Shown here: piece after piece, positions 3,210-23,279 of the stretch | Position numbering within the stretch: the first letter of the stretch is position 1 | How the letters are laid out: each line of letters opens with the position of its first letter | Source of the DNA: Patescibacteria group bacterium | GTDB taxonomy: Bacteria > Patescibacteriota > Minisyncoccia > Phycocordibacterales > UBA1006 | DNA: 64,000 nt | NCBI GenBank assembly: GCA_028286885.1 | Contig: JAQBQS010000016.1 | Span: 2,809-66,808 of the forward strand | Reading direction: 5' to 3' | Made by a program: the position numbers and the translations under genes | The notes under the pieces: generated by a model | The model's database searches: none | What the model saw: only the letters and a program-made list of their open reading frames with translations | Told to the model about the DNA's origin: nothing

Positions 3210-3357
3210 AGTAGCCTAAACTCGTCTAACGGCGAGCATGGTGAAAGCAATGTCCAGTCAGACATAAAAAACCCATCATATGGGGTTTGTCTGACTGGCT
3301 GCATTTGGAAACGAATGCAGAGGGCGAAAGTCCTCAACCTATGTGGTGGGCTTTTTG
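3210..3357 (+). ncRNA. Candidate structured RNA, copy 1 (unassigned family)
   Basis: Homologous to 23133-23279 with compensatory changes; multi-stem junction with two GAAA tetraloops and a 3' U-run. Confidence 0.7.
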
Positions 3358-3389
3358 TATCTCATTTATTAGAACAGTCAGACTAATTT

Positions 3390-3728
3390 ATGAAATTTAA
3401 TCCTTTTAAGATAATTTTAAGTGTCGCCAGTCTTATTTTAGCTGGAAGTGTGTTTTATTACTTTATTATTTATTTGCCCTCTGAAAAGCAGATGGAACAT
3501 TTTCGAACCGAACAGGGGAATAGTTTGAGAAACTCGGCATTAAATCATTGTTTTCAGGATGTTCAGTCTGAATATCAAGATGATATGACGAAAAACTGTT
3601 TCCAAGAAGGTTTTGATGATTGCTCCCTGAATCCACATGTTGCAGGAAATATGATAGTTGTTTTGAATAATAAATTACAAGCAGATAAGCAAATTTGTAT
3701 TAAAGAGTACGGGACATGGAATCCATAA
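3390..3728 (+). CDS. Hypothetical single-TM exported protein, Cys-containing
   Basis: N-terminal TM helix, four Cys, followed by a terminator. Confidence 0.7.
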   Translation: MKFNPFKIILSVASLILAGSVFYYFIIYLPSEKQMEHFRTEQGNSLRNSALNHCFQDVQSEYQDDMTKNCFQEGFDDCSLNPHVAGNMIVVLNNKLQADKQICIKEYGTWNP

Positions 3729-3776
3729 TAAAAACAGCTTAAAACCCCTAATTTAGGGGTTTTAAGCTGTTTTTAT
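3728..3776. terminator. Bidirectional intrinsic terminator / perfect inverted repeat
   Basis: ATAAAAACAGCTTAAAACCCCTAA-T-TTAGGGGTTTTAAGCTGTTTTTAT between convergent genes. Confidence 0.75.
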
Positions 3777-3871
3777 TTACTATTTAGAGTGCCCGTATTG
3801 CCTAACTTTTTCTTACCTTGAAACCTTTTTATTTCGCACTTTTTCGTACCAACATTTTTAATTTAAAGTGC

Positions 3872-4165
3872 CTAACTGGCAACATTAAACTTGATATTTC
3901 TTGTTTTTTCCAAAATATCCAAAGTAGCTTTTACAGAAGAATTAGAAGTATTTTTTAAGATTAGCCTATCGCCGTATTTACTGACCAATGGGCTTAAAAA
4001 TTCATCTCCCCATGATGGAGCGAATGTTAAAATTCCAGAAAAATCCAAAATAAGCTCTTCTGAATCAGAAAAGTTTTTTAATTCAGGTTCAAATGCTGTA
4101 AAAGCTTCTCTTCCTCGATCCCGAAATACCGATGTGTTTCCAAATTTAACTAATTGAATTTCCAT
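3872..4165 (-). CDS. STAS-like DUF4325 family protein
   Basis: R.RGRE...LILDFSGI...PSWGDEF motif; lies downstream of an HATPase gene as is usual for this family. Confidence 0.75.
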   Translation of the reverse strand: MEIQLVKFGNTSVFRDRGREAFTAFEPELKNFSDSEELILDFSGILTFAPSWGDEFLSPLVSKYGDRLILKNTSNSSVKATLDILEKTRNIKFNVAS

Positions 4166-4183
4166 AATGTTTATTATACTAAG

Positions 4184-4915
4184 CTAATATTTAATATAAG
4201 CAACACAGCCGCGTAACCAACGAACGGCAGGCCTAATATCTAAATTTGAAGAGTCATGTTTAATTTCCAGTTCTGCGTTACCACTTTGAAATCTAAGTCC
4301 GATTAGATTATTTGTTACGACAGTCCTTACAAATTTTAATCCGTTCCCACGAGACTCCTGAGTCCTTCCAGAAACAACCTCGGTAAATGCTGTATTTATA
4401 GCACTACCATCATCTATCAGGTCTGGGAGGGCTTGCCTTAATGTTGTTAAGATCCCTAAGCCTCGGTCAGCGAGCACAACCTCTCTTTTGTCTGTGTCGT
4501 ATGCAAAAAATATGCCTGCTTCGTCTGGCCAGCGACCTAAGTTATGATCGAAAGAGTTTCCTCCAATTTCTCCAGAAACCGATACCACCAAAGAAAATAT
4601 ATCTTCGAGGAGAGGTGATTTCAGAAGCTCTTCTTGAAACTTGCCAAGCTTGGTCTGAAAAACTGCACTATTCTCAGCATATGCATATCTAGGGATGTGC
4701 GGTATTTCTTTTGAGTCAGCAGTTGCCCATTCAAAAGCTGTTTGAAAAAGATTGTTTGGAAAGAACTCCAGATCAATCTTTCTGTAAAATCTATCCCCGC
4801 CAGGTGATTTCCTAACGGCTCGCAATTTTCCACTCTCGTCCCAACGCCTTAGCGTTGTTATTGAGACATTTAAAATTTTTGCTGCCTCCCCTACTGGTAA
4901 TAGTTCATTCTCCAT
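4184..4915 (-). CDS. MerR-type HTH fused to HATPase-like domain
   Basis: VGEAAKILNVSITTLRRWDESGKL HTH; EIGGNSFDH (N box), DRGLGI (G1), RGNGL (G2). Confidence 0.8.
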   Translation of the reverse strand: MENELLPVGEAAKILNVSITTLRRWDESGKLRAVRKSPGGDRFYRKIDLEFFPNNLFQTAFEWATADSKEIPHIPRYAYAENSAVFQTKLGKFQEELLKSPLLEDIFSLVVSVSGEIGGNSFDHNLGRWPDEAGIFFAYDTDKREVVLADRGLGILTTLRQALPDLIDDGSAINTAFTEVVSGRTQESRGNGLKFVRTVVTNNLIGLRFQSGNAELEIKHDSSNLDIRPAVRWLRGCVAYIKY

Positions 4916-5078
4916 AATTTAAGGTTATATTTTGAATTATACACTAATTTAGGCAAAAACTTGTGTAATACCTACTCATAATATATGCTAAATCTACTCA
5001 TTGCAACAAACATTGATTTTATACCTTTAATCCCTATAAATTGCAATCTGATTAATAGCTTATAATCAAAACATATTT

Positions 5079-5366
5079 ATGGCAGTAAGAATTACTTGTA
5101 TTAACAAAGATAATGGAAATCATTTAAATCCTCATGCAGGGATAACGCACTTCGGATGGGTAAATGAACAAACCAGGGCTACTGGTAAAAGCACGAAAGC
5201 TGTTATGGTTGATTTTTTGACTAAACAAGGAGGGAAGGCATATGTAAAAGATGCTAGAGGGAATATCGCTTATGTTGGCGTTATTACGAATCATATTCCT
5301 CCATATCTTAGAACCTACGCGGATGGTAAGTGGTCGGATAATTTGCTCAGTTTGGGCGAATGTTAA
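5079..5366 (+). CDS. DUF3892 family protein
   Basis: ITCINK...YLRTYADGKWSDNLLSLGEC signature. Confidence 0.8.
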   Translation: MAVRITCINKDNGNHLNPHAGITHFGWVNEQTRATGKSTKAVMVDFLTKQGGKAYVKDARGNIAYVGVITNHIPPYLRTYADGKWSDNLLSLGEC

Positions 5367-5369
5367 TTT

Positions 5370-6104
5370 ATGAAGTTGGTTTTTATTGATGAGACAGATC
5401 GGCAGGCAAGTTCCACAGTCCACGCATTCTTTTCGATTTGTGGGTTGGTTATTGATGAGTCTGAAATTATGGCAACGACAAACGAACTTGAAGAAATTAA
5501 GAAAAAATACAATTTTTCGAATCTAAAGGAATCTAGAAAAAGCGGTCTTTCCGAACAGGAAAAAGTTATTATTTCTACAGAAGTATTTGATTGCCTCAAA
5601 AAACATAACGCATCAATTATTTCAATCGTCTTGGGAGATTTTTCCATGAGCTTTAACATGCCCAAAGATGACCTTTACATGGGAGCAATACAATTCTTGA
5701 TGGAGCGTTTCTGTCTTATTTTAATGAAAGTAAATAGTTGTGGTTTGGCAATATTTGATTGTACAGAAAAGAGATTTGAGAAAAAGCTTAGAGAAAAATT
5801 TTACGAATATATTCAGACTCAAACCGTTCATATGGCTTGGGAGTCAAAACCAAGAGGTCCCATGAGAGATTTCATTCAACCAACTTTATTTTTTGCAGAT
5901 GATGAGCAAAGCATTCTTATTCAAGCGGTTGATCTTATTGCTGTTTCTTTAAACAGTGCGATCGTTAATATTACGCAAAGCAACCCAAAAATCATGGTTG
6001 CAGATCTTCCTTCTGGTAATAAGTTTCTAAACATATACTGGCCACTTTTTGCTTCAAGTTCTTCAGGTAAAGTCGAGGGGTGGGGTGTAAAAGTTTGGGA
6101 TTAA
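5370..6104 (+). CDS. DUF3800 family protein (RNase H-like fold)
   Basis: N-terminal FIDE and C-terminal IQAVDLIA motifs. Confidence 0.75.
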   Translation: MKLVFIDETDRQASSTVHAFFSICGLVIDESEIMATTNELEEIKKKYNFSNLKESRKSGLSEQEKVIISTEVFDCLKKHNASIISIVLGDFSMSFNMPKDDLYMGAIQFLMERFCLILMKVNSCGLAIFDCTEKRFEKKLREKFYEYIQTQTVHMAWESKPRGPMRDFIQPTLFFADDEQSILIQAVDLIAVSLNSAIVNITQSNPKIMVADLPSGNKFLNIYWPLFASSSSGKVEGWGVKVWD

Positions 6105-6290
6105 TCAAATGTTTTATGATGGTTCTACAACCATTAAGGTGTTAGTTTAATATTTACAAAACCATAATAAATTGAATCAATAAGGCTTTTGAGTCAATGA
6201 ATATTTTGTTCTCATTGCGGATAAGACTTCGTTCCATGTTAGAATCATATTCTGCAAGGTGTTCCATTCTAGGGACATGATGCGCACCAC

Positions 6291-6334
6291 TTCGCAAAAA
6301 AGCCATTCGTCAAAACGAATGGCTTTTTTGCGAA
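6291..6334 (+). terminator. Intrinsic terminator, probably the original tRNA-Gly terminator
   Basis: 20-bp stem TTCGCAAAAAAGCCATTCGT-CAAA-ACGAATGGCTTTTTTGCGAA immediately after the putative right att (GCACCA). Confidence 0.6.
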
Positions 6335-6361
6335 AAATATGAGTATGCTATAGTAACGAAT

Positions 6362-6934
6362 ATGGAACTTGAAACGCAACGATTAATACTTCGAAAAGGC
6401 AAAAGGGGGGACTGGAAAGACATTGTTGAAGGAGCTTCGGATCTGAATGTTTCAAAGAATATGACCACGGTGCCTCATCCCTATGGCAAGTCCGATGCGG
6501 AGTGGTTTATCAATGACTCGATCAAGAAGTGGAATCAAAAGAAAGGATACTCTTTTTTCATTGAATTGAAATCGGAAAAGAAAGTTATCGGTGTGATGAC
6601 TATCGGCGGGATTAGCGAAACCAACGGCACAGCGACAACGGGTTCTTGGGTTAACAAGAAATATTGGAAAAAAGGATATATCACAGAAGCAAAAATAGCG
6701 GTAAATGATTTTGCTTTCAATATGTTAAAACTTCGACGCCTCAACTCGACCGTTTTTACGGAAAATAAAGCATCAAATGCTACTCAGTCAAAAATGGGTT
6801 ACAAGATGGAAGGAATGAGCCGAAAAGCACAAAGATCCAAATCCACCGGCAAGATTCACGATATTAATATTTACGGACTTCTTAAGGAAGACTGGAAAAA
6901 GGCGAGAAAAAATCTTGTCCGAAAAAGTAAATAA
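6362..6934 (+). CDS. GNAT (RimJ/RimL-like) N-acetyltransferase
   Basis: LETQRLILR start; YWKKGYITEA; N.AS....K.G motifs. Confidence 0.85.
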   Translation: MELETQRLILRKGKRGDWKDIVEGASDLNVSKNMTTVPHPYGKSDAEWFINDSIKKWNQKKGYSFFIELKSEKKVIGVMTIGGISETNGTATTGSWVNKKYWKKGYITEAKIAVNDFAFNMLKLRRLNSTVFTENKASNATQSKMGYKMEGMSRKAQRSKSTGKIHDINIYGLLKEDWKKARKNLVRKSK

Positions 6935-7710
6935 TGAAACGAATATTCACTCCCTACGAACTCGCGCAACTGGCGAAACACACGATTACGGATTTTGACT
7001 TGGAAAAAATTTCAAAAGGACTCGGCGAAACGTTTTTGGATATTCCCGTTGAATACATAACAGGATTCTGCGAGTTTCGGAAACATGATTTCCAAGTAAG
7101 CCGCGATACCCTGATTCCGAGAATAGAAACGGAAGAAATGATTGATATCGGATTAGAATGCGCAGCGGGTATTCTTGAAAAAAACATCGACAAGAAAACA
7201 ATCGCGTTTGCGGATATCGGAACAGGATCGGGAATTATTGGAATTTCATTCGCAAACGAACTGTCCGAGAAGGGAATCATCACCAAAGGCACTCTGTCGG
7301 ATATTTCGCCAAATGCGCTCGAAATTGCAAAGCAAAACGCAAAGCGCATTCTTGGCGAGGAAAACGATCTCGCATTTTTGGAATCGAATTTGCTCGAGAA
7401 TTTTCCAGTCTCGAAATTTGATATTGTGTTCGCAAATTTACCCTACATTCCATCTGGGAATATGAAGGGCTTGGATTCCTCGGTGAAAGACTTTGAGCCT
7501 GTATCGGCACTCGACGGCGGACCCGACGGATTGGACTTGGTCAGGAAGCTCCTACAGCAGGCTCCTGCATTCTTGAACCAAGATGGCATCGTGATTTTAG
7601 AAGTCGATGATTCGCATCTTGATGCAACTGAATTCTTGGAGAACTTTCATGTCGAGATTAGAAAGGATCAGTTTGGAAACAACCGGTTTTGGATCTTGAA
7701 ATTAAAATAA
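6934..7710 (+). CDS. prmC: Release factor glutamine methyltransferase HemK/PrmC
   Basis: LIPRIETE, DIGTGSG, NLPY (NPPY variant), ALDGGPDGL. Confidence 0.88.
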   Translation: MKRIFTPYELAQLAKHTITDFDLEKISKGLGETFLDIPVEYITGFCEFRKHDFQVSRDTLIPRIETEEMIDIGLECAAGILEKNIDKKTIAFADIGTGSGIIGISFANELSEKGIITKGTLSDISPNALEIAKQNAKRILGEENDLAFLESNLLENFPVSKFDIVFANLPYIPSGNMKGLDSSVKDFEPVSALDGGPDGLDLVRKLLQQAPAFLNQDGIVILEVDDSHLDATEFLENFHVEIRKDQFGNNRFWILKLK

Positions 7711-7773
7711 GATGAAACATAAAATCCTCCATATGGAGGATTTTATGCGTGTTTGTGAATCGCAAAAAGGAAA

Positions 7774-8046
7774 CTATTTGACTGCGTCCTTCAAAGCCTT
7801 TGCGGCTCGGAACTTTGGAACGGTTGTCGCTGCAACCTGGACTGTCTCGCCCGTCTTCGGGTTTCGAGCTGTTCGTGCTGCGCGCGCTTTCGCTGAGAAG
7901 ATTCCGAGTCCGGCGAGCGAGACTTCACCTCCTTTTTTCAAAGTTGATGTGATCTCGTCGATAAACATCTGGACAACTTCCTCGGCCTGGACCTTGGTTC
8001 CGCCGATTTTCGCGTGGATCAAATCGGCAAGTGCTGCTTTGTTCAT
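7774..8046 (-). CDS. hup: DNA-binding protein HU
   Basis: MNKAAL...GLGIF...ARTARNPKTGE...PKFRAAKALKDAV. Confidence 0.95.
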   Translation of the reverse strand: MNKAALADLIHAKIGGTKVQAEEVVQMFIDEITSTLKKGGEVSLAGLGIFSAKARAARTARNPKTGETVQVAATTVPKFRAAKALKDAVK

Positions 8047-8259
8047 GTTCATAGGAACGTGTGCGTCCGTCCCGCCCGTCGGCGGTTCGGACAAAATGAT
8101 TAGGACTTGTAATTAGCTGATCAGCCTTTTGCTTCCAAAAAGCATAATCATTGTAGCATAAGGGTTTTTAGGGACTACTTGACTATAAACTTTATTTATG
8201 ACATGATGTTTTGGAATAAAACCGTTATAATTGAACATTTTAAACTAAAAGACAAGAAT

Positions 8260-8859
8260 ATGGCTATAAGAAATCAAGACAAAACAGTCATTGTAACCTA
8301 CGGGGGAAGCTTGATGAAGGACTATTCGCTCATCAGCGAACGGTGTGAATCAGTTTGTGATGCGGTAGAGCAGAGTGAAACCGATAAAACATACATTATT
8401 TTGGCAGCAGGATTTAATCCCAAGGAAAAAACCAATAAGCCGTTCAAAGAGTTAATGGCGGAAGACATTGAGATTATGCTCGAAGGAAAAAGATATGAGC
8501 GTATCGCCGACGGTATGTCAGCTGATTTAGTCAAAGGAGAGCATCTCGTCAAAATTATGCCGACAGCGGGAAACCATTGGGGGACACTCAAACAGACGGA
8601 GGCGATGCTGCATGAAATAGGCCTTCTGAAAGATGTCAAAACAATTCATGTTGTCATCACCGAGGAAAACATTCCTCAGCTGAAATTTATCTGGCGGCTT
8701 TTTTACAAAGGCGATGCCAAGCTTGAATTCTCCGGCAAGCCGCGCGGCGGAAGAAGCCATTACTACAGGTACGTGCTGGAAAATTTGCGCAAGGTGAGAG
8801 CGCTCCTCTACTGGTTCTTCAAAAAGGATCTGGAGCGAACGCTTGATATCGATGAATGA
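8260..8859 (+). CDS. Hypothetical protein
   Basis: 199-aa ORF with upstream promoter-like sequence and downstream hairpin. Confidence 0.6.
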   Translation: MAIRNQDKTVIVTYGGSLMKDYSLISERCESVCDAVEQSETDKTYIILAAGFNPKEKTNKPFKELMAEDIEIMLEGKRYERIADGMSADLVKGEHLVKIMPTAGNHWGTLKQTEAMLHEIGLLKDVKTIHVVITEENIPQLKFIWRLFYKGDAKLEFSGKPRGGRSHYYRYVLENLRKVRALLYWFFKKDLERTLDIDE

Positions 8860-8980
8860 TTTTAAACACAATATCCGCACATTGCTGTGCGGATTTTTTA
8901 TTTAAAAAACTTCTAAGCCACCACACCAAATTTCCTTTCCTTAAAAAGGAAATTTGGTGTGGTGGCAAGAAAAAAGCAGC

Positions 8981-9316
8981 TTAGGCTGCTTGGGGTTCGA
9001 GAAAGAGAGGTTCGAGTTCCTTGATCACTCCGCAGAAGAATTTGATTTCCGCCTTCGGAACGTCCGAAACGAATTCGGGATAGCGATTCTTGAATACCTC
9101 GTGGTTTTTCCAGAGAATGGTAATTTTGCCGTAGATGAGGTCGATGTTTTTCGGCGGAATACGTTCTTTGTGCAAGGAGACCAAAGTCTCGATTGTTTTG
9201 ATCCGTTCGCAGAAGCCCAGGTGAATAGGATGCGATCCTGATTTCGAATACGACTCCATTTTCTGGGGCAAGTTTGCGAATACGGCTGTTACAGCAATGA
9301 TATAGTCTTGATTCAT
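8981..9316 (-). CDS. Hypothetical protein
   Basis: ORF from MNQDYII; the longer called ORF overlaps the next gene. Confidence 0.5.
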   Translation of the reverse strand: MNQDYIIAVTAVFANLPQKMESYSKSGSHPIHLGFCERIKTIETLVSLHKERIPPKNIDLIYGKITILWKNHEVFKNRYPEFVSDVPKAEIKFFCGVIKELEPLFLEPQAA

Positions 9317-9392
9317 AACAGTATTATTTTGTCTTATGAGCGTACTATTCTGCTTTATTTTTGTAAAGCAAAACGCCCCCGGCGTCCTGGTC

Positions 9393-10169
9393 TTATTGCG
9401 CCTGATTCCATGCGATATCAAACAGCATGCGCATGAACATGGCGATGGATCTGTTGGTAATAATGACTGAATGAAGCCCTTTGTCCCAAACAGTAAGCGC
9501 GACATGGTCCGTCCAAACGGACATTTGCAAGTTGGAATTGAAAATCGCCTTGGGGAGGGCGCGCACTTCGCGGAATTTGATGCGCGCTTCGAGGCGTTCG
9601 TCATCAATATCTGGAAATTCAGGCAAGAGAAGTTTTGTTTTGATTTTCCGTTTGATACGAAGCTCGCGATACTCCTTGAGCCTGTCGCGCGCAACCGTAA
9701 ACCGCTCGGGGTCTCCCGACATGCGCAGTACCTCGCCGCCTTTTTCCTGATCAAGGGATTTCATGAAAACCTTAACAAATCCGTCCTCTCCTTCCAAATG
9801 CTCGATGTCGATCTTTTCGGATTCGCCGCGCAATGCAAACAGGCTGCGCAGTTCCGGCATGACGAGTTCGAGCTCGGACACCTTTTTTCTCGTTTCGAGT
9901 TCCTCATGCTCGAGGAACTTCCGTATCTTTTCAGGATTTTCGACATAGAACACGCGGCGTTTGCCGGAAGCTGTTACGCCAAGAACGCCGCGTTCAACAA
10001 GGCTTTCAACAGCAAGGTGAATAGTCGAGCGGGGGAGTTTTACGCCGCCTGCAATCGCGGCAATGCTCGAGATTCCATTTTGGAACAAGAAAAATACTGC
10101 CTGAATTTGAGCCGAGTCCATGCCGATATTCTTGAGTGACGACTTCAATTGTTTCGGTATTTCGATCAT
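9393..10169 (-). CDS. TrmB-family transcriptional regulator
   Basis: N-terminal wHTH (IAGGVKLPRSTIHLAVESLVERG) plus sensor-like C domain; paralog of 34730-35485. Confidence 0.8.
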   Translation of the reverse strand: MIEIPKQLKSSLKNIGMDSAQIQAVFFLFQNGISSIAAIAGGVKLPRSTIHLAVESLVERGVLGVTASGKRRVFYVENPEKIRKFLEHEELETRKKVSELELVMPELRSLFALRGESEKIDIEHLEGEDGFVKVFMKSLDQEKGGEVLRMSGDPERFTVARDRLKEYRELRIKRKIKTKLLLPEFPDIDDERLEARIKFREVRALPKAIFNSNLQMSVWTDHVALTVWDKGLHSVIITNRSIAMFMRMLFDIAWNQAQ

Positions 10170-10294
10170 GAAACAAGATTATCACAAGTAGTTTGAAATG
10201 ACAAATTTTTATGACACTTTGTACAAAAAACTATAAAAACCAATGAAATTGCCATTTTTACAGAAATAGGTATCAAAATTACTTGTCAAAACTA

Positions 10295-10323
10295 TTGACT
10301 TTTGTTTGCGCGCGTGATACAAT
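10295..10323 (+). promoter_or_regulatory. Sigma70-type promoter with extended -10
   Basis: TTGACT-17 nt-TACAAT preceded by TG. Confidence 0.55.
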
Positions 10324-11011
10324 GCTTGCAGGAAGATAAGAAATAATTCTTCGAGTTCTTTCAAATCCGCGAGATTGCATCCCATTCTCGAAAGGACCGT
10401 TCCCGATATCATAACGTTTGGTGGTATTTGGAACAGTCCTTTCGAGGAAATATTAATAAGCGGCAGCGACTATCTGCCAGGGTCCCCGTGCTGAAGCGAT
10501 TTGACTTCAGGGCGGGGGTAATAACTTGGAGATCCCCATCCAGGAATCAGACACTTAACGTAAGTTCCTCTGACCAACCAATCTGGCGGGCAAAAAACCA
10601 TTCTGCGGGAACAGAATGCCAACTCTATAGACAAGGTTACAACCCCTACGTTAAATGAGTTAAAGTTTTTATGTACAGAGCCGCGTTTCTCGGCTCGTCC
10701 TTCCTTCATGTTCCTAACCGGGCGCAGGGACATGAGGGGCGTGATTAGGTCACGCAAGAAGGGAAGATCTTTGCATTGCATTTGCAAAGGAAGAAAATGC
10801 GCGTAATAGGGAGAGGTCTGGCAAAGGGGGCCTAGAGGGTCATCCTGAGGACCGGACACCTCTCCCTTTCTATCAGGATCTCGAAGAAATTCGAGGTTCT
10901 GTAGAAATTATTCTTTCAAAAAATATAAAGATGTGCGCATGTAAAAGTCACGAGAATAAGAATGTGAAAATTGAAAAATTTACAATTATTCATCATTCAA
11001 AAACTTTTATT

Positions 11012-11305
11012 ATGCAAAACATGTTAGTTGTTACAGCCGCGGTGGGCAGCTTTTTTTACGAGGGACATGATGATCCGAAGACATTTTTCCTAAGCGTAAA
11101 ACCTGGTGATTCTTCGGAAGAGCTTGTTTCTACGGTAGTGGAAAAGTTGTATCGAGTTTTTCGCCCAGAGGATCTTTCCTTCGGGAATGGCTTCGTTGGG
11201 ATAATCCACGACCTCGATCCCCAGGGCGGCCTGATTCGAGAAATCGAACAGAAGTTTAAAGAGCGTTTGGGTAGGGACGAGATCACCGTTCAGGTGAATG
11301 GGTAA
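11012..11305 (+). CDS. Hypothetical protein
   Basis: 97-aa ORF between hairpin repeats. Confidence 0.55.
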   Translation: MQNMLVVTAAVGSFFYEGHDDPKTFFLSVKPGDSSEELVSTVVEKLYRVFRPEDLSFGNGFVGIIHDLDPQGGLIREIEQKFKERLGRDEITVQVNG

Positions 11306-11476
11306 TACCAAGTATTGGCGAGAGTTTCTCGCCATTTTTATCAGAGTCTTGAATTTAATTCGAGGTTCTGCAGAAAGCACATTCAAACAAAATATAAATA
11401 TACGTGCTGTTGTATCCATGCAAAATTATCTATTCAAAGAGTTGGAATAGAAAAAAACAAAACAAAATTTTGCAAG

Positions 11477-11989
11477 ATGGAAAAAACAGTATCACGACGT
11501 TGTTCGCTTAGGTATTGCAATTCCTCGGTAGTGAGCTCACTTCAAGTGATCCACTACGGTGCCAGCAGGTTTGAGTTTTCAAAGTTTAATCCCATTGCGA
11601 ACCACTTCGGTACGTATGGAATTAAACCGAGAAGCGGCGGTCTTTGGACCTCGCCGGTTAACTCAAATCATTCCTGGAGAGGTTTCTGCGAAGGTGAAGA
11701 TTTCAATCTTCATACCTTGAGTTCGTCTTTTCGCCTCTCGTTTCATGGTTGCGCCAAAATCGCAATCATTGACTCGTACGGGGACTTGGAGAACCTTCCG
11801 ATGAGGAGTTTTCCAAAGTCGATGGCTGAAACCGATGTCGATTGGGAGCTTGTTGCTCGCAATGCAGACGCGGTTTGGCTTACGGCGAAAGGCGAGACGA
11901 GGACGAGGCTTTCGGCCCCGTACTTGTTGAACGGATGGGACTGCGAAACAGTTCTCATCATGAATCCGAATTGCTTCTACCTCGTGTAG
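11477..11989 (+). CDS. Hypothetical protein (possibly phage-associated family)
   Basis: KPRSGGLWTSP...DWE...DAVWLT...GWDCETVL conserved-looking motifs. Confidence 0.6.
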   Translation: MEKTVSRRCSLRYCNSSVVSSLQVIHYGASRFEFSKFNPIANHFGTYGIKPRSGGLWTSPVNSNHSWRGFCEGEDFNLHTLSSSFRLSFHGCAKIAIIDSYGDLENLPMRSFPKSMAETDVDWELVARNADAVWLTAKGETRTRLSAPYLLNGWDCETVLIMNPNCFYLV

Positions 11990-12094
11990 AGCAGTTTGTA
12001 TTCATAGGACAAGGAAACTTGTCCTCTTTATCAGGATCTTGAACACGTTCGAGGTTCTGTAGGGAATATTTGATCACCTAAAAATAAATAACGT

Positions 12095-12301: not shown

Positions 12302-12346
12302 TTTAAGTAAACATACGCAAAGAGCGGTCTCTAAAGACCGCTCTTT

Positions 12347-13879: not shown

Positions 13880-14075
13880 AAAAATTCAAGGTCGCGCTAA
13901 GAAGTAAAAATCAAAAATAAACCAGAGAGGGAAGAAGTGCTGAATAAAAACAAAATAAGAATTTCCCTATGTTTAAAGTATCAGGAAAAACGCACTTTGT
14001 AAAGAAACTTGACGCCTGCTTGAAAGGATGATACGTTCATTCATGATAAAACTCTTTAAACCAAAATAACTAACC

Positions 14076-14495: not shown

Positions 14496-14618
14496 CCATT
14501 AAAACAGTCCCTACGGGCTGTTTTTTATTTTGATGGAAGGCAAGTAATATTTGACATTCTAGTTTTGAAATGGTAAATTCATTTCAATATCTTTATTCTT
14601 TCATCAAACATTGAAAAC

Positions 14619-15047
14619 ATGAGAAAAGCATTTATTGCCGGCTTGATGATGTTTATGACGGCAGCGCTGATCGCCCAGAATTCATTTCCGGGAGATCTGG
14701 ACGGTATGGATACTTTACAGTATCCGGCTGCTGCGCCATCAAAGTACGTTCTTCGGATCAAGAATCTTTCTTCCAATGCGGTCTTCGCCATTGCGTTTGC
14801 CTGTACCGCCAATACATTCTATGACGGAGATACGATCGTATTGCAGGAAACATTTTTCAAGGATGCGCCGTCCGCTCAGATGAGCATTTGTCTGGAGACG
14901 GTCGAATTCACGAAAAGCTCGGTCTGCCGAAAAGTCGCCAAGGAAGACACGGCGATCATTTACACGAAATGCGTCATTTTGTCCGGAGGCACGGATCCCA
15001 AGAAGCCGTGGCGGTCATATCATTACACGCGCAACAATTCGGGCTAA
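14619..15047 (+). CDS. Hypothetical secreted protein (paralog of 15965-16321)
   Basis: Signal peptide; shares YDGDT.V and YTK.VI..GG motifs with 15965. Confidence 0.65.
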   Translation: MRKAFIAGLMMFMTAALIAQNSFPGDLDGMDTLQYPAAAPSKYVLRIKNLSSNAVFAIAFACTANTFYDGDTIVLQETFFKDAPSAQMSICLETVEFTKSSVCRKVAKEDTAIIYTKCVILSGGTDPKKPWRSYHYTRNNSG

Positions 15048-15174
15048 AAGCCTTTGAAATCCCGGTTATGCCGGGATTTTTTATCGGGAAAATGCCGTAT
15101 TGGATACTTGACATATTATATATATTATGCTAATGTATAAGAGTATTCTTTTAATAACCGCATAAATCAAAAAA

Positions 15175-15810
15175 ATGAAAAAAGTAATGTTCATCGCTAC
15201 GGCGCTTATCGGCCTTTGTCTTGCATCATGCACCCAATCCCAGAAACAGGATCAAACGGCTGAAACCAAGCCCGCCTGCGACTGCAAAGAAAAGTCATGG
15301 ACACAAGACGGCATCGAATACTCGCAGGTGTGCCTCGAAAACTGCAAGTCGGAAGTCGACAAGGAGCAATTCGACACTCTTGTCAAAAACGGCGTGAGCG
15401 TATACATGCACCGCAAATGGGTCTACGGAGATACGGCTTGGGCTGCTTGGTACATTGACCAGGTGGAAGGCAAGAACGTAACCATCACGCCTCAATCCGA
15501 CCAGGATCTCAGGCGCGAACACATCAGGAATGCCCACAAGGATGGAGATCTGGTAGACGTTTCCTTTTGGGGAGATTCGCTTGCAGGCCCTAAGCACTGG
15601 AACGGAGGCTATTTCAAAATCCGCGTTTACAAGAATCGCTTCGAGATTCCGTGTGTGGACCATAACATGTATCCTGACCTGAGCGTCACGCAGATCGATG
15701 AGATGAATGCATTTCTGGCCAAGTACAGATCCCGCTTCACAGCCATGATGCAGGCCGCATCGGATCCGAAGCTGAAGGACTTCCAAGTCCTGTCGCCATT
15801 TACTCTTTAG
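15175..15810 (+). CDS. Hypothetical lipoprotein
   Basis: Lipobox LASC after hydrophobic signal. Confidence 0.7.
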   Translation: MKKVMFIATALIGLCLASCTQSQKQDQTAETKPACDCKEKSWTQDGIEYSQVCLENCKSEVDKEQFDTLVKNGVSVYMHRKWVYGDTAWAAWYIDQVEGKNVTITPQSDQDLRREHIRNAHKDGDLVDVSFWGDSLAGPKHWNGGYFKIRVYKNRFEIPCVDHNMYPDLSVTQIDEMNAFLAKYRSRFTAMMQAASDPKLKDFQVLSPFTL

Positions 15811-15964
15811 AGAGAATCACATTCCTTTAAAGAAAACCCTTCCAATAAATGGAAGGGTTTTTTATTTTTACACGAAAAAAATAGAGATGGATATAATTTG
15901 ACAATTAACATATATTATGCTAATATAAGAACATATTCTTTTAATAACCACATAAACAAACCAA

Positions 15965-16321
15965 ATGAGAAAAGTATTTTTCGCAATCGCAATAATCTCG
16001 GCATTGTTTCTCTCAAGCTGCAATTCCAATGATACGCACAACATGATTCGAGTGATGAACTTAAAAGATCTCGCCGATAAGGAAAATCCCTTGGTATCGC
16101 TCCAGCTCAAATCCGATGCACGGCCCCACTATGATGGAGATACTGTCGTAGTCGGCCAAACGATGTCAGGATTCAGCCTTAACTGCTTCATCGAGACCAA
16201 GCCCGTTGTATTTCCGAAAGGAAAGATGGAAGTACAAGAAGACCAGCTGGTCAGCATGATAACGTATACGAAGATGGTTATCATGAGAGGCGGTGACAAA
16301 ATGCCTTCCGTAAATCTCTAG
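15965..16321 (+). CDS. Hypothetical lipoprotein
   Basis: Lipobox LSSC; paralogous motifs with 14619. Confidence 0.65.
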   Translation: MRKVFFAIAIISALFLSSCNSNDTHNMIRVMNLKDLADKENPLVSLQLKSDARPHYDGDTVVVGQTMSGFSLNCFIETKPVVFPKGKMEVQEDQLVSMITYTKMVIMRGGDKMPSVNL

Positions 16322-16407
16322 TTTGCAAATTATGCAAACGCAAAATCCGAATTCATTTTATGAATTCGGATTTTTTCTTGGCACCTATTTTTAAAAACGC
16401 GCCAAGA

Positions 16408-16992
16408 TTACCGCTTCGTAATCACCTTGTCGGCGATGCCGTACTTTACGGCTTCTTCGCCGTGCATCCAGTAGTTGCGGTCGGCATCTTTTTCGATCTG
16501 CGCCAAGGTCTTGCCTGTATTCTTGGCAAGCATCTTGTAGAGCATCGCCTTGTTTTTCAAGATATGTTCTGCGACGATCGCGATGTCGGACGCCTGGCCC
16601 TCGGTTCCGCCGAGCGGCTGATGGATCATGACTTCGGAGTGGGGAAGGACGAATCGTTTTCCTTTCGCTCCTTCCGACAAGATCATTGCGCCCATGCTCG
16701 CCGCCATGCCGACGCAGATCGTCGAGACGTCGCATTTCAAAAAGTTCATCGTGTCGATGATCGCCATTCCTGCGGTGATGACGCCGCCCGGAGAATTGAT
16801 ATAGAGCGTGATGTCTTTCTTGCTATCGTCGTTTTCAAGGAAGATAAGCTGCGCGATGATGATGTTGGCAATCTCGTCGTCGATCGGACCCGCGAGGAAG
16901 ATAATGCGCTCTTTCAGGAGGCGCGAATAGATATCGTATGCGCGCTCGCCTTGGGATGTTTTTTCGAGGACGGTTGGGATTAAATATGACAT
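16408..16992 (-). CDS. clpP: ATP-dependent Clp protease proteolytic subunit
   Basis: [36 protein letters not shown]. Confidence 0.97.
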
Positions 16993-17235
16993 AGGAATAT
17001 TAGAAATTAGGTTAAGTTCGGATTCCTCCCCTGCGAAGGGGAGGTGCCCGTAGGGCGGAGGGGTATGTTCGGATGTGTCTGAGAATCTGAAAAACCCGCT
17101 ATGACTATAGCACAAAAAGAAGGCCTCGACTGAATTCTTGACATATTTATACATCTCTGATAATATGGATCCCCGACGTTCTTTTTGAAAACCGCATCAC
17201 CCAATTTGATTTTTAAACCAAACCAACATATCCAA

Positions 17236-17754
17236 ATGGAAGAAACCAAGCCAACAGCAACGGGGAAATCCCCAAAAGCAACCGTCTTGATCGTGATCCA
17301 CGATCATAACTGCCACAAGCCGAGCAAGAAGCTCTTTGGCGAAGCGGTCGAATTCCTGATCGAAAGGTCGGATGCCGACATCGCGTTCACGACGAATGCA
17401 TACGATCACCACGAACTGGTACTCTCAATCACTCCGGAAGGTTCTACCGAAGGCGCCATGCCTGCGGCCGGAATATTCCAGGAAATCGGAGCGGAGCTCA
17501 GATGGATGGGACGGAGCGACCGCGGCGACGCGCATCTCCTCGACTTCAAGCGTGTTCGCGAACCGCACGTCGCATCAAAGACAAGCCTCGAGTTCAATGC
17601 CCTCAAGCATGCCAGATCGATACGCAACTGCGTGCCCGGCATCATGAAGATCGCCGAACTCAAGTATCAGACTATGAAACTCAACAGCGGCGGAATCCCG
17701 CACATGGTCGTGACCGTGCCTGCTGACAAGAAAGTATTGGAGCTTGTCGAGTAA
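17236..17754 (+). CDS. Hypothetical protein
   Basis: 172-aa ORF with promoter and terminator. Confidence 0.6.
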   Translation: MEETKPTATGKSPKATVLIVIHDHNCHKPSKKLFGEAVEFLIERSDADIAFTTNAYDHHELVLSITPEGSTEGAMPAAGIFQEIGAELRWMGRSDRGDAHLLDFKRVREPHVASKTSLEFNALKHARSIRNCVPGIMKIAELKYQTMKLNSGGIPHMVVTVPADKKVLELVE

Positions 17755-17851
17755 CGAAAGTTCAAATCCCAATCAGAGCGTCTCTTAGGAGGCGCTTTTT
17801 ATCTTGACAAAATCCATTTTCGTGATAAACTTTTCGCAAATAAAATTACAA

Positions 17852-18218
17852 ATGAATAAACATCTAAAAGCAGCATTTCAACTTTTTGTGCTCTTAGCCG
17901 CTGCGACATGGGTTATTACAATACTCATTGGGGCATATGTGGACCTGTTAAACACCATCAAAGCTGTCTTTCTTATCGCCCTTTCTCGATTCCTCATCCC
18001 GTACGTTGTGGCAATTGCGTTAATAATATTTTCTAAATGGATTTCGGAGAAGAATCAAGAAAAAATTTATACTGTTGCAACAACGCCGGTGATCGTGGTG
18101 CTGATAACCGCTTATCAGCGGGATCTATTTCGGAATCGCATCGGGCATAGCCTTTGCGCTCTCGTTATTTTTTCTCTACGGCATTCCGTATTGCAAAAAG
18201 ATATTTCAGAAAACATAA
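17852..18218 (+). pseudogene. Frameshifted membrane protein gene
   Basis: Hydrophobic ORF from MNKHLK; near 18115 the hydrophobic sequence continues in another frame (FGIASGIAFALSLFFLYG...KT*), which ends just before a terminator. Confidence 0.45.
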
Positions 18219-18262
18219 TCGCACATCAAAACGCACCTCGTCAGGTGCGTTTTTTATTTTAC

Positions 18263-19321
18263 CTATTTCAATCCTTCCAAGTATTCAAATGCTTTTGCGT
18301 TCGTCAGAATCTGCGTGACATAGGCGCGTACGCGTTCTTCGGAAACATCCTGCGCGTCCTTGTACATCTCGAGAATCTTCGCAGTCTCTGACTGGATTTC
18401 TTCCTGATTAGGTTCAAGCTTCTCGTCTTCTGCAACCTTGTCCAAGATGAGCTGCATCTTCGCGCGCTTCTCGGCGTTGATGCGCCATTCGGCTTTCAAT
18501 GCATCTTCTGTCTTCTCGATTCGTTTCAAGTAATCGTCCATCGTCATGCCCGTCATCGAAATGTCGTAGGCGAACTGCGACATCATCTTGTCGAGTTCGA
18601 TGTCGACCAGGAGATCAGGCAAGTCAATCGAAGCTCCTTCGATAATTCCGTCGATCATGGTAATTCGTTTCTTCTCGTTTTCCTGGCGCGTTTTTTCCTT
18701 CGCCAAGTTTTCGCGAAGCTTCGTCTTGAAATCTTCGACTGATTCGAATGCTCCGAGCGTTTTTACAAACTCATCGTCGAGCGCAGGAAGATCTTTTTCT
18801 TCGATGTTCGCATGGTTGTGATCCGTGTGGTCATGTCCGTGCTCGTGCATCAAATGATGCGCGCGCATCTGGCGGAGTTCCTTGATCGAGCCGTCCACCT
18901 CGTCGTCGGTTACCTCGACTGAAATGGTTTCCTTGTTTGTCGACTTGGCAATTTTTTTGTAATCGCCCAAATCGATTTTCGGAACGACAGCCGTGATCAC
19001 GGAAAATTCCAAGTCGTTGCCCTTGGCAATTTTCTTGATATGGATTTCTGGTCGGCCGATTGCCTCGATCTTATTATCAATAATGACCGTTGGATATGCG
19101 TCGGAAATGGCGAGTTCCGCCATTTGTTCAAGGATGCCCATTTCGCCGACGTGTTTTTCGATCATGTTTGCGGGAACCTTGCCTTCGCGGAATCCGTCGA
19201 TTTTGACGCGGCGGCCGATCGCGGCGATGGCGCGGTCGCGGTAGCTCTCGAATTTTTCAGCAGGAACAGTTCCGCTGATCTCGATGCGGGAACGATCCAA
19301 TGGTTTGATTTCGGGTTTCAT
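18263..19321 (-). CDS. tig: Trigger factor lacking the FKBP domain
   Basis: GFREGKVP ribosome-binding motif; LPALDDEFVK and C-terminal domain; only 352 aa, with a His-rich linker in place of the PPIase domain. Confidence 0.92.
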   Translation of the reverse strand: MKPEIKPLDRSRIEISGTVPAEKFESYRDRAIAAIGRRVKIDGFREGKVPANMIEKHVGEMGILEQMAELAISDAYPTVIIDNKIEAIGRPEIHIKKIAKGNDLEFSVITAVVPKIDLGDYKKIAKSTNKETISVEVTDDEVDGSIKELRQMRAHHLMHEHGHDHTDHNHANIEEKDLPALDDEFVKTLGAFESVEDFKTKLRENLAKEKTRQENEKKRITMIDGIIEGASIDLPDLLVDIELDKMMSQFAYDISMTGMTMDDYLKRIEKTEDALKAEWRINAEKRAKMQLILDKVAEDEKLEPNQEEIQSETAKILEMYKDAQDVSEERVRAYVTQILTNAKAFEYLEGLK

Positions 19322-19364
19322 AGTGCGGGTATCGTAGCAGATTTCGAGGAAAATAAAAAGCGCC

Positions 19365-19646
19365 TTAGTTGAGCGCTTTCTTGAGGTTCAGTTTGTTTTC
19401 GAGTTCCCGGACCTTCAAATGAATGAAGAATTTCGAGAAGGCGCCGATCGACGGATCAGCCTCCTGCTTCTTGAGAGTTACAAGCTGGGCCGTCATCTGC
19501 GCGACGGGGTCGGCAGAAGTCTCCGTTGAAACAGTCGTTTCAGGGGCTGAAACGGTTGCATCAGCAGAAATGGTTTCTGCATGAGCATGCGCGGCTCCGA
19601 AGGCTACGATTGCGATGGCAAGGCTAAAAATAGCGAGTTTTTTCAT
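19365..19646 (-). CDS. Hypothetical secreted protein
   Basis: Signal peptide ending AHA. Confidence 0.6.
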   Translation of the reverse strand: MKKLAIFSLAIAIVAFGAAHAHAETISADATVSAPETTVSTETSADPVAQMTAQLVTLKKQEADPSIGAFSKFFIHLKVRELENKLNLKKALN

Positions 19647-19709
19647 AACTCTCTTACTGTACCATGAAACGGGTCGGTTGTCAGGTGAGATGTGGATAAC
19701 AAAAAAACG

Positions 19710-20246
19710 CTATTTAGCGTATTTTTCGTCATAAAGCTTAAATGACTCTTCGATATTTTCGAGCGCCGTCTTCTTGTCATGGATTCCGTTGATCGAAACC
19801 GTTCCTTTCTCGCCCTTCTTGAGCTCCTTGTACGTTTCCCAAAAATGCGTGAACTCTCTCAGGTTGTGCTTGTTGATGTCGGCCAAGTCCTGGATGTCTT
19901 CGAACCGCTTGTCATCCACCGGAACGGCGATGATTTTCGCGTCTGATTCCCCGGTGTCGGTCATATCCATCACCGCTACCGGCCGGACGCGTACCAAGAT
20001 TCCCGGCATGATCGGATAGGTCGTGAGCACGATCACGTCGAGCGCGTCGCCGTCGTGCCATAGCGTCTGCGGAACGAATCCGTAATCGAACGGGTAGGGT
20101 GCCGCGGAATAGTTCGCACGGTCGAGCGCGATCAACCCTGTCTCCTTGTCGATTTCGTATTTGTTGCTCGAACCCTTGGGGATTTCGATAATGACGTTCA
20201 ATTCGTTTGCGCTTGTTCCGCGCGAGATGTCGTGCATGAGATTCAT
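19710..20246 (-). CDS. ppa: Inorganic pyrophosphatase (family I)
   Basis: IEIPKGS.NKYE.DK, YGFVPQT..DGDALD, D.GESDAK. Confidence 0.95.
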   Translation of the reverse strand: MNLMHDISRGTSANELNVIIEIPKGSSNKYEIDKETGLIALDRANYSAAPYPFDYGFVPQTLWHDGDALDVIVLTTYPIMPGILVRVRPVAVMDMTDTGESDAKIIAVPVDDKRFEDIQDLADINKHNLREFTHFWETYKELKKGEKGTVSINGIHDKKTALENIEESFKLYDEKYAK

Positions 20247-20369
20247 ATGGACATTACAGTACCATTTCACAGGCATTCTTGCAAAATTATCAAGAAACAA
20301 GAATGCCTTCTTGGCAAGTTGCCAGATTCCCAATAAGGAGTAGATTGAAATCAAGTAAATCTTTAAAAA

Positions 20370-20810
20370 ATGAAAAGAATATATATGTTGGCAATGCTCG
20401 TCGTCATGACGACGGCTGCCATGGCACAGCACTTTCACGGCAACGGCTTCGCCGTCAGAGGCGGATGGAATGTCAGCTTCGGCGTGAGCCGCGGCCTCGG
20501 ATGGGGAACCAATCCCGGATACTACAACAATTTCGGAAGGTTCGGATGCTCAAGTCCGGTTGTCTATGATTATGGATACAACTACCGGTATACCTATAAT
20601 CCGGGCATCTATCTGACGCCGGCCTATTCCGCTCCGACGGTAATCGTACAACAAGCGGCGCCTGCGTCTGTAGTCATCATCCAGCAGCCTGTCGTGATAC
20701 AGGAATCGAACCCTTGCTATTACATTACCGAGTACCACAAGATCGGTGGGCAACAGGTATACGATGCCAACGGCAATCCGGAATCCCGGCGCGTCCTCCG
20801 ATGTGACTAA
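20370..20810 (+). CDS. Hypothetical secreted protein, Gly/Tyr-rich
   Basis: Signal peptide AMA|Q; terminator follows. Confidence 0.6.
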   Translation: MKRIYMLAMLVVMTTAAMAQHFHGNGFAVRGGWNVSFGVSRGLGWGTNPGYYNNFGRFGCSSPVVYDYGYNYRYTYNPGIYLTPAYSAPTVIVQQAAPASVVIIQQPVVIQESNPCYYITEYHKIGGQQVYDANGNPESRRVLRCD

Positions 20811-20965
20811 TGAGTTTTTTAAAAGATCTGCTTCTTGCGGATCTTTTTTATTTTTGCTAGGATGCGAAGGCGAGATTAAGGCGCGGCGGCCGTAACGGGC
20901 CTCCTTCAGGGCAGTAGCGACCGTATCGGCCGCCGCCCAAACGCCCCACGCTCGCGCCAAAACAA

Positions 20966-21040
20966 TCCCCTGTAGCTCAGCGGTAGAGCAATCGACTGTT
21001 AATCGATTGGTCGTAGGTTCGATCCCTACCGGGGGAGCCA
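20966..21040 (+). tRNA. tRNA-Asn (GTT)
   Basis: TCCCCTG/CGGGGGA acceptor, anticodon loop CTGTTAA, GGTTCGATCC T arm, encoded CCA. Confidence 0.95.
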
Positions 21041-21331
21041 GTTAGGGGTACTAGCAAGTTCTAGTACCAAGTTCCAAGGTTCTCGCATTGTAAACTCTAG
21101 GTTTTTTCCATCTACAAGCGGGTTCTGAATGAGATAATTCACAAAAGCTCTTTTTTCATGTGTATCAGAACTTTCAAAAAGTTCAGTTGCATCATGAGCA
21201 AGATTAAGTATTACGCCTACAGTGATTTTGTAAGTGTGATCTGCTTTTGTGTGCTCATCAAGTTCGATAGAAAGTCGCGCCTGTCGGTCTTTAAGCTGTT
21301 GCAACTTTTTGTCATAGTCGTCAGGGGTAAT
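21026..21331 (-). pseudogene. C-terminal remnant of a large serine recombinase
   Basis: ITPDDYDKKLQQLK...ELFESSDTHEKRAFVNYL...LEFTMREPWN...WLP coiled-coil tail running into the tRNA; no catalytic N-terminus. Confidence 0.65.
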
Positions 21332-21398
21332 TCGCCACTCCGATCATATTTCAGCCCGTACCGCTTAAAAGGCTCGTTATTGTGCTACATTGATGAAT

Positions 21399-21953
21399 AT
21401 GCAAGAAGATAAAAGGATCGCTACAATGGAAGCTCTGTATGAGAATTCAAAGAGCTTAATAACATCCGCCGACTCTCTTATAGAGTCAAAAATGCCCGTT
21501 GGGCATGCTTTTGCGCTACTTCAAACAGCTTGTGAGGAAATCGGAAGAATGTTGGCAATTTTACAAATCCTTCAGAGTGTTAAAGTTGAGCTTCCAAGGA
21601 ATAGGCATACTGTTAAGCACTCCCATTTTCTTAGATTTATGTCGATTCAGCCTGTAGGGCATCGACCTTACTTTGAGATCATTTCCGAGATTACTGGCTT
21701 TGAAATCAATCAAGAGAACTCAAAGGACGATGTTGTTCTTGATAAAATTCAGAAGTTTAGAGAGTCTTGCTTATATGTAAACGTTAATTTCGATAACAAT
21801 CATACGATTTCATCCCCAACTGAAGAGAGAATACAAGGTAAGGTTGAGCAGGTAAAGGAGCTAAAAGAAATTCTTGTAAATTATATGAATGGCATGCTTA
21901 AACCACTTATAGAAGCTCACAAAAACGGGAAGACGATATTCTCTAAATCTTAA
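21399..21953 (+). CDS. AbiV-like abortive infection protein
   Basis: N...L...A..L, ALLQTACEEIGR, HTVKH, FRESCLYV motifs resemble AbiV. Confidence 0.65.
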   Translation: MQEDKRIATMEALYENSKSLITSADSLIESKMPVGHAFALLQTACEEIGRMLAILQILQSVKVELPRNRHTVKHSHFLRFMSIQPVGHRPYFEIISEITGFEINQENSKDDVVLDKIQKFRESCLYVNVNFDNNHTISSPTEERIQGKVEQVKELKEILVNYMNGMLKPLIEAHKNGKTIFSKS

Positions 21954-21959
21954 GGTCTT

Positions 21960-22925
21960 ATGGAAAATCTAAAATCTAAAAAACAAATACTTTTAACAGG
22001 GGCTGGCTTTTCAAAAAATTTCGGAGGCTTTTTAGCCAAGGAAATGTTCGATGAGATCTATAACAGCGACCATCTTAAAAAGTTTCCAACATTAAGAGAT
22101 AAGCTTCTTGCCACAGGTGATTTTGAGTTTTTTTATGCGGAAGCAATGCTCGATAAAAACCTAACTCCCGAAGAAAAAGGTGCTGTTAAAGCTGCAGTGC
22201 AAGAAGCTTACAATAACCTGGATAAAATCTTTCAGAGCTCTTTTATATCCAATGGTGATTTGCTAATGAGCTGGGGTGATTTTCTAAGTAAAAACTTTTC
22301 TGGTAATGGGTCGGCTGTAGGGTTATTTTTTACTCTCAATCAGGATTTGTTGCTGGAAAGAAGTTTTGGGAATGTTTGCCCTGGAGTCAAGTCATTTAGA
22401 ATGAACGGGCTTGGACAAGCAGATTCATTTTCTTCCTCTCATTCGGTAGTTCTACCACAAGACACTAAAAGGGCAGAGGCAGACATTTTAGTGGGTAACC
22501 TTTCCTATTTTAAGTTACATGGTTCCTATGGGTGGAAATCTTCTGACGGTACAGATCAGATGGTTGTAGGAAGTAATAAGTCAGAGCTGATTGAAAAGGA
22601 GCCGATCCTGAAGCTTTATTTCGATGTTTTTAAGAAGGCTATCGCCGAGGGAAACAAAAATATTTTAATAATAGGGTATGGGTTCAGGGACAAGCATATC
22701 AACGATGTCTTGATGGACGGGGTTGAAAACCATGGATTAAAAATAGTTTGTATAGGTAACTCATCAATAGCTGATGTTATTAAAAAAGCGGAAAATGAAT
22801 ACCCAGAATGCGTACCTTTACTAAGAAGGGTTGATAAGTACTTCCCTTACCCTTTAGAAAGAATCTTAAATAATAATGCAGGAGACACAAGCTTTCGAGA
22901 TAGGATCGAGGAAAATATTCGATAA
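21960..22925 (+). CDS. SIR2-like (SIR2_2) domain protein
   Basis: LLTGAGFS, TLNQDLLLE, KLHGS, IIGYGFRDKHIN. Confidence 0.85.
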   Translation: MENLKSKKQILLTGAGFSKNFGGFLAKEMFDEIYNSDHLKKFPTLRDKLLATGDFEFFYAEAMLDKNLTPEEKGAVKAAVQEAYNNLDKIFQSSFISNGDLLMSWGDFLSKNFSGNGSAVGLFFTLNQDLLLERSFGNVCPGVKSFRMNGLGQADSFSSSHSVVLPQDTKRAEADILVGNLSYFKLHGSYGWKSSDGTDQMVVGSNKSELIEKEPILKLYFDVFKKAIAEGNKNILIIGYGFRDKHINDVLMDGVENHGLKIVCIGNSSIADVIKKAENEYPECVPLLRRVDKYFPYPLERILNNNAGDTSFRDRIEENIR

Positions 22926-23132
22926 CCTTAGCAATTCTTAGCATTATTTAGAGAATGTTAGATTTTCATATAATCGCAGATCCATCTTAATACTCCTCCA
23001 ATTAAGGGTTCTGAACTTGCTTACGAGGGGGAGCCAAGTATTGACGATTTATCGAATATATTGTAATGAAAAATCACCATATTAATATGGTGATTTTTCA
23101 TTTATGTGCTATAAGATAAATACAACTAAATC

Positions 23133-23279
23133 AGTAGCCTAAACTCTTGAGTGATCGAGAGCATGGTGAAATAAACCCAGTAAAGATTAAAAAACCCATC
23201 ATATGGGGCTATCTTTACTGGTCGTATCTGGAAACGGATACGGAGGGCGAAAGCTCTCACCTATGTGGTGGGCTTTTTG
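23133..23279 (+). ncRNA. Candidate structured RNA, copy 2
   Basis: Aligns to 3210-3357 with covarying stems. Confidence 0.7.

Follow-up and report, generated by a model that had tools for sequence, protein, structure and literature searches.

In a 64,000-nucleotide (nt) stretch of DNA from a Patescibacteria group bacterium (GenBank assembly GCA_028286885.1, contig JAQBQS010000016.1, positions 2,809 to 66,808 of the forward strand; hereafter the window), two RNAs of the Rfam family LOOT (RF03000) lie upstream of protein genes. We consider it probable that LOOT is a promoter-proximal leader RNA that acts in cis and has two states, in which the 3' tail of the RNA opens helix P2 and the strand set free covers the start region of the downstream (cargo) gene. 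The unit would consist of a promoter, LOOT, its tail and a single cargo gene, usually oriented opposite to island integrase and packaging genes, and one promoter would give one transcript with LOOT and the cargo gene. Its carriers appear to be small integrative, phage-satellite-like islands of Patescibacteria (candidate phyla radiation, CPR).

The original prediction had described a structured + strand RNA of no recognized family in two copies, at 3210–3357 and 23133–23279. These coordinates were borne out, and the invariant segments and covarying stems are present in both copies as described. Folding energies of the + strand were −63.2 (copy 1) and −58.1 kcal/mol (copy 2), with z-scores of −7.3 and −6.6 and none of 200 shuffles as good, against weaker − strand folds (z −3.9 and −4.6), in agreement with a + strand RNA. 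The label "unassigned" is refuted, because both copies match LOOT: in an Rfam scan of the window, model positions 1–121 aligned with both repeats at full length, with cores at 3213–3335 (+; P1 with receptor, P2, P3 and P4; 81.3 bits, E 9.6e-14) and 23136–23258 (+; 92.6 bits, E 2.1e-16), the gathering cut-off being 46.4 bits. All six model helices (P1, P1a, P2, P2a, P3, and P4) are found in copies 1 and 2, with P2a partly non-canonical in the Rfam alignments. The two copies are ordinary members of a known family and not a new RNA. The Rfam entry, of the type small RNA (sRNA), ends at P4; the helix between P2 apex and tail, the copy of the P2 arm at the start codon, the promoter and the island context all lie outside it.

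For comparison, 105 LOOT loci were collected, of which 92 could be parsed and 13 could not; 84 had a distinct P2 arm, and one mis-parsed locus was left out of later counts, leaving 83. One additional signal was a pairing of the P2 apex with the tail that follows the Rfam model (3338–3357 in copy 1; 23260–23279, identical, in copy 2; both +). When the 32 nt after the model were paired with the apex of the same locus, the mean energy was −25.5 kcal/mol, compared to −13.7 kcal/mol with swapped partners, and the own pairing ranked in the top 5% at 78 of 84 loci. In an alignment of 40 loci made from sequence only, this helix comprises 15 pairs with 95.8% of cells paired and 12 pairs changed on both sides; the swaps at one position include C-G, U-A, G-C, and A-U. 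None of 500 shuffles of this alignment reached the values of the whole structure (P3 included), and slid registers left 40–50% paired, though kinship inflates both controls. The U-rich end of the tail pairs with an A-rich linker and changes together with it, and non-U letters in the tail tracts of relatives pair with the apex. The main role of the 3' segment CCTATGTGGTGGGCTTTTTG, as partner of the P2 apex, had been missed in the original prediction. A run of at least four U is present in 68 of 91 tails (five U in both window copies). In a subset of loci the segment after this run can recapture the tail (own −10.3 versus −7.2 kcal/mol; top 5% in 29 of 83).

The second additional pairing involves the P2 arms. 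In copy 1, P2 spans 3254–3298 (+), with the 5' arm (a) at 3254–3264, the apex at 3265–3287 and the 3' arm (a*) at 3288–3298. An exact 9-nt copy of the 5' arm (a', 3375–3383, +) ends 6 nt before the ATG of the cargo gene and can pair with a*; at −16.3 kcal/mol, this duplex was the best of 77 when compared with swapped partners. Exact copies of at least 8 nt were detected downstream of LOOT in 34 of 83 loci (1.3% with swapped arms, one case upstream and one on the reverse strand). Twenty-seven of the copies end 2–7 nt before an ATG, while their distance from LOOT ranges from 41 to 70 nt. Counting only loci with an open reading frame (ORF), a' lies near the ATG in 28 of 76, in 24 genomes and 21 families, where chance would give about 1%, and each of the 28 has a different P2 sequence. 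A word resembling a Shine-Dalgarno (SD) site was seen in none of these 28 loci and in 9 of the 48 others. The genome of the window is itself poor in such words (20 of 537 before starts versus 39 inside genes); a search for the 3' end of its 16S rRNA with two short motifs gave no hit. Presence of a' showed no association with membrane cargo (17 of 28 versus 30 of 48). An origin of a and a' as a target-site duplication was considered and rejected: P1 lies outside the repeat and is nevertheless always present, and a' follows the ATG.

The conserved core resembles a known tertiary contact. In copy 1, P1 (3215–3241, +) carries the receptor-like halves CCUAAAC (3215–3221) and GCAUGG (3236–3241), followed by P3, with its GAAA loop at 3308–3311, and P4, also with a GAAA loop (together 3299–3335, +). 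Both halves are present in 100 of 105 loci, and 104 of 105 have a closed GAAA loop. The internal loop CCUAAN/YAUGG together with a GAAA loop, the criterion for an 11-nt receptor, is present in LOOT. As described in the available part of a preprint (bioRxiv 10.1101/2024.03.11.584472), the 11-nt GAAA tetraloop receptor (CCUAAG/UAUGG) shares with LOOT the CCUAA...(C/U)AUGG loop and a GAAA loop closed by G-C/C-G. LOOT differs from it in having A-C (46 loci) or arrangements of the C-U type (45 loci) in place of the G-U pair. From these motifs we infer that the GAAA loop docks into the P1 receptor. In a 40-sequence alignment, invariant columns are restricted to the receptor and the GAAA loop, apart from a single base at the foot of P2 and a single U in the tail. 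In a separate comparison of loci, identity was 0.88 for the receptor, 0.62 for the apex and 0.40 for the P2 arm.

A putative promoter precedes the RNA. A −10-like box (score of at least 5) was found upstream in 81 of 105 loci, compared to 32% of shuffles, and an ACAA follows the −10-like hexamer by 6–8 nt in 54 of the 76 loci counted. Copy 2 has a predicted extended −10-like box (TG-C-TATAAG, 23107–23115, +) 6 nt before an ACAA that is the likely transcript start, a spacing typical of the family. For copy 1, a weak candidate (TAGACA, 17 nt, TACGCT; 3161–3189, +) was picked by eye and falls below the threshold of the promoter scan; the −10 sites of both copies were absent from the output of the consensus promoter scans. 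Three RNA runs from the same study gave no contig over 22600–24600, an outcome that bears on expression in neither direction.

On these grounds the following course may be envisaged. State I would form first, with P2 (a:a*) closed and kept so by the P3 loop docked in the P1 receptor, and with the start region of the cargo gene open. In state II, the tail would invade the P2 apex with about 15 pairs; judged by its geometry, a helix of that length within a 23-nt loop should force P2 open. The freed a* could then form a duplex with a', cover roughly −17 to −2 relative to the start codon and block ribosomes in hosts that rarely use SD sites. Where tails are rich in U, the apex:tail helix may in addition halt RNA polymerase or make it pause. 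As a result, membrane, nuclease and exclusion proteins would be expressed only briefly or at a damped level. The input is most likely kinetic (folding time, pausing, or capture of the tail by a hairpin behind it) and not a metabolite; few bases remain for a binding pocket and the downstream genes share no common pathway, which makes a switch under kinetic or protein control likelier than one that senses a metabolite. At the point where the tail has just been completed, the apex:tail fold and the P2 fold differ little in energy (−2.9 ± 3.7 kcal/mol, 83 loci).

A comparable principle is known from the 5' untranslated region of the MS2 maturation gene, where, according to the part of PMC4615214 that was available, a metastable helix opens a time window until slow refolding brings a complementary upstream strand onto the initiation region. 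As far as that text goes, the MS2 leader belongs to an RNA phage, is SD-based and lacks a tetraloop-receptor scaffold, and LOOT, unlike it, needs a tail-triggered strand exchange. With this proposal, a family so far without a role gains a concrete mechanism that can be tested by mutation, with two extra helices of exact partners, and a home in small integrase/terminase islands of CPR bacteria. If correct, it would also provide a case of RNA-based translation control in uncultured bacteria that rarely use SD sites, and a small expression switch that can be re-coded. A broader version, to which we give less than even credence, sees LOOT as a portable, ligand-free RNA timer, a leader stabilized by its tetraloop and receptor, whose re-codable 11-nt strand silences any fused cargo by covering an SD-free start, carried by undescribed, capsid-less, terminase-bearing satellites of Patescibacteria.

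Several observations weigh against the two-state leader. The start-codon copy a' is a minority feature (28 of 76 loci overall) and is concentrated in the order of the window (26 of 47 loci, compared to 2 of 29 in the rest of the phylum). In an independent set selected by apex and tail alone (85 loci examined, of which 82 could be parsed and 42 were new and had an ORF), a' was found in 7 of 42 at −12 kcal/mol or better (0.8% with swapped partners), which by sequence comparison places it above chance, yet again in a minority. Copy 2 keeps the apex:tail pairing and lacks a clear a': a partial 7-nt echo of the P2 arm before its ATG (23408–23414, +) is not significant, as its duplex reached −7.2 kcal/mol and 6 of 77 swapped partners were better. 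The unconstrained nested ensembles of copies 1 and 2 did not leave the P2 state or populate a*:a' for any of the lengths tried, and that of the third copy of the genome flipped only briefly; the folding program handles nested structures only, and pseudoknots are outside its scope. The apex:tail helix could also form while P2 stays closed, as a static pseudoknot. The longer downstream ORF lies on the opposite strand in 8 of 105 loci. Finally, a run of four U is missing from 23 of 91 tails; termination is therefore not general, and the tail serves primarily for pairing, with termination in some copies at most.

Among the other explanations, the one we take most seriously, although we regard it as unlikely, is that LOOT is mainly released as a stable sRNA ended at the tail and acts in trans, as autoregulation or immunity, on read-through transcripts that come from the same island or from one newly entering the cell. 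The Rfam type, the frequent U-runs in the tails and the satellite-like appearance of the host elements fit such a role, and the P2 arm differs between co-resident copies in all 16 multi-copy genomes among those listed. There is also precedent in IsrK of Gifsy-1 and the CI RNA of satellite P4. From the portion of the source seen (PMC4825925), these RNAs resemble LOOT as leader RNAs of mobile elements with partners in their own transcript, alternative folds and downstream control of termination or translation; they are unlike it in being short or processed trans RNAs that control replication or antiterminator genes. No Rfam match of the C4 or P4 CI type was obtained in the window at E values up to 5. 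However, all complementary partners of LOOT are found in cis, within the transcript itself. Apex and tail do not differ between copies 1 and 2, and conservation is higher in the apex than in P2; therefore, immunity groups coded by the apex would be a poor fit. If LOOT were a riboswitch that senses a small molecule or ion and uses apex:tail and a*:a' as its expression platform, this would explain the leader position, the tertiary receptor-tetraloop scaffold and the mutually exclusive helices; we hold it to be improbable, since the invariant columns are mostly receptor and GAAA and leave little for a binding pocket, and the downstream genes are heterogeneous.

Still less probable is a role directed against the main transcript of the island, as an antisense RNA or as a transcriptional barrier between the methylase-terminase operon and the integrase. 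LOOT does face against the island genes in most loci (counts below), and the apex read on the − strand is a hairpin followed by a U-run; this reading nevertheless leaves a' at the cargo start and the receptor and GNRA loops of the + strand unexplained, and the A-run is accounted for by the tail pairing. Least probable of all appears one static fold (P2 plus the apex:tail pseudoknot) that stabilizes the 5' end of the mRNA, with a' as a by-product of duplication. That most loci lack a' would suit it; that a' follows the ATG instead of keeping a set distance from LOOT, and that it matches another P2 sequence at each of its 28 loci (24 genomes), would not.

The genome of the window (845,730 bases, 93% complete) contains three LOOT copies, the third at 13918–14051 of contig C3. 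Sixteen of 61 relatives carry LOOT, as do 41 of 151 genomes sampled from the order and 30 of 151 from the phylum; these samples partly overlap, and each includes the genome of the window. None of 14 control genomes has it. A pattern scan of named genomes returned at least 120 stretches; among the 80 matches listed, 66 bore CPR names and 4 bore names of other groups. Sixteen of 20 stretches checked were LOOT, and two of the four named for other groups were not. LOOT also turned up on contigs labelled Bdellovibrionales and Thioalkalispiraceae, by transfer or mis-binning.

In the literature searched, LOOT received passing mentions only. Within the parts available, it is described as having six helices, about 43 pairs and many cross-covariations (PMC7657543), is shown as a ZWD-based Rfam family in a figure legend of the Rfam 14 paper (PMC7779021), and appears as a table row in PMC11701678; the portion of the Weinberg 2017 main text at hand (PMC5737381) does not discuss the motif. 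The leader-switch reading was not found in print in a search that did not cover the discoverers' supplement. The motif reportedly originates from the Weinberg 2017 survey. Sequence comparison gives good support to the added pairings and to the island context; neither was found in the literature searched, the Weinberg 2017 supplement not being covered.

An ORF of at least 50 codons starts on the same strand 25–250 nt downstream of LOOT in 98 of 105 loci. Hydrophobic N-termini are encoded by 58 of these 98, compared to 240 of 920 ORFs of the genome of the window. Most of the 98 have no family and they share no pathway; those assigned comprise SNase (6), superinfection immunity (3), DUF4352 (3), T5orf172 (3), SHOCT (3), DNA methylases (3) and HNH (2). 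The description of the two window copies as lying in accessory DNA upstream of unrelated membrane proteins held up, the ORFs downstream having hydrophobic N-termini and no Pfam or PHROG match. No match to the SRP54 family was found in the 93% complete genome of the window, while 14 of 14 control genomes gave one; a link to membrane cargo is speculation. In 68 of 105 loci the first ORF upstream of LOOT is divergent, and the 100 upstream ORFs scanned included 13 serine integrases and 8 ParB-type proteins.

For the wider context, 40 loci were taken at ±10 kb, with long contigs preferred and one locus per genome, alongside 20 control stretches. By tblastn, the 40 loci contained a serine integrase (28), terS (16), a ParB-methylase (16) or terL (7). 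At least one integrase, terminase or ParB-methylase gene lay within 10 kb of LOOT in 29 of the 40 loci, compared to 0 of 20 controls. LOOT faces against the integrase in 22 of 28 loci, against the ParB-methylase in 14 of 16 and against terL in 5 of 7. Transfer RNA genes were noted near both copies in the original prediction, and tRNA-Gly and tRNA-Asn do lie 2.1–2.3 kb upstream here; as a family trait, this proximity did not hold (tRNA within 5 kb in 12 of 40 loci versus 6 of 20 controls). With no tRNA enrichment, a tRNA-linked RNA like GOLLD or ROOL was rejected. Seven of 22 viral-contig loci scanned hold LOOT; six of the seven have a clear terS or terL and five an integrase. No capsid or portal match was found in the 53 of 71 ORFs scanned on these seven short viral contigs, and the 40 loci were not searched for capsid genes. 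A compact CPR element recurs, with ParB-methylase, terS, often terL and a serine integrase, and with the LOOT-cargo unit inserted against them; judged by titles and the beginnings of abstracts, the literature turned up for related terms does not describe it.

The two window islands show only an integrase (copy 1) or an integrase remnant (copy 2), and both look like decayed islands; 12-mer matches revealed no duplicated 3' end of tRNA-Gly or tRNA-Asn bounding them. Copy 1 has the full feature set of the proposed leader unit. Its cargo gene (3390–3728, +) encodes 112 amino acids with a hydrophobic N-terminus and no family, a terminator-like hairpin of 20 pairs (3729–3775, +) closes the unit, and a large serine integrase gene (908–2599, −) is divergent from it and runs into tRNA-Gly (863–934).

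In copy 2, the P2 arm a lies at 23177–23187, the apex at 23188–23210 and a* at 23211–23221, and the cargo gene (23424–24425, +) encodes 333 amino acids with an N-terminal membrane anchor and no family. The copy follows two defence-type genes and a C-terminal serine integrase remnant (21026–21304, −) that runs into tRNA-Asn (20966–21040) and has 56% identity over 98 amino acids to the integrase beside the third copy. The two genes, HEPN AbiV and SIR2-like (21390–22925), stand between tRNA-Asn and copy 2 and are likely a defence pair. A perfect inverted repeat with 19-nt arms is found upstream at 23067–23104. The word AAAAATCACC is common to copies 1 (3149–3157) and 2, about 65 nt upstream of each; as a family element this was dismissed, as only 4 of 104 loci carry AAAWTCAC.

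The third copy has a 10-nt a', and its island includes a replication initiator and a serine integrase running into tRNA-His. Further along are a reverse transcriptase, an Avd-like ORF and a tyrosine integrase. The window also contains a diversity-generating retroelement (44895–49279). Its variable repeat (47301–47428) lies at the 3' end of the gene for an 868-amino-acid AAA_5 protein, the template repeat lies at 47693–47818 and the reverse transcriptase at about 48230–49225; a 69-nt block of the repeats differs only at template adenines.

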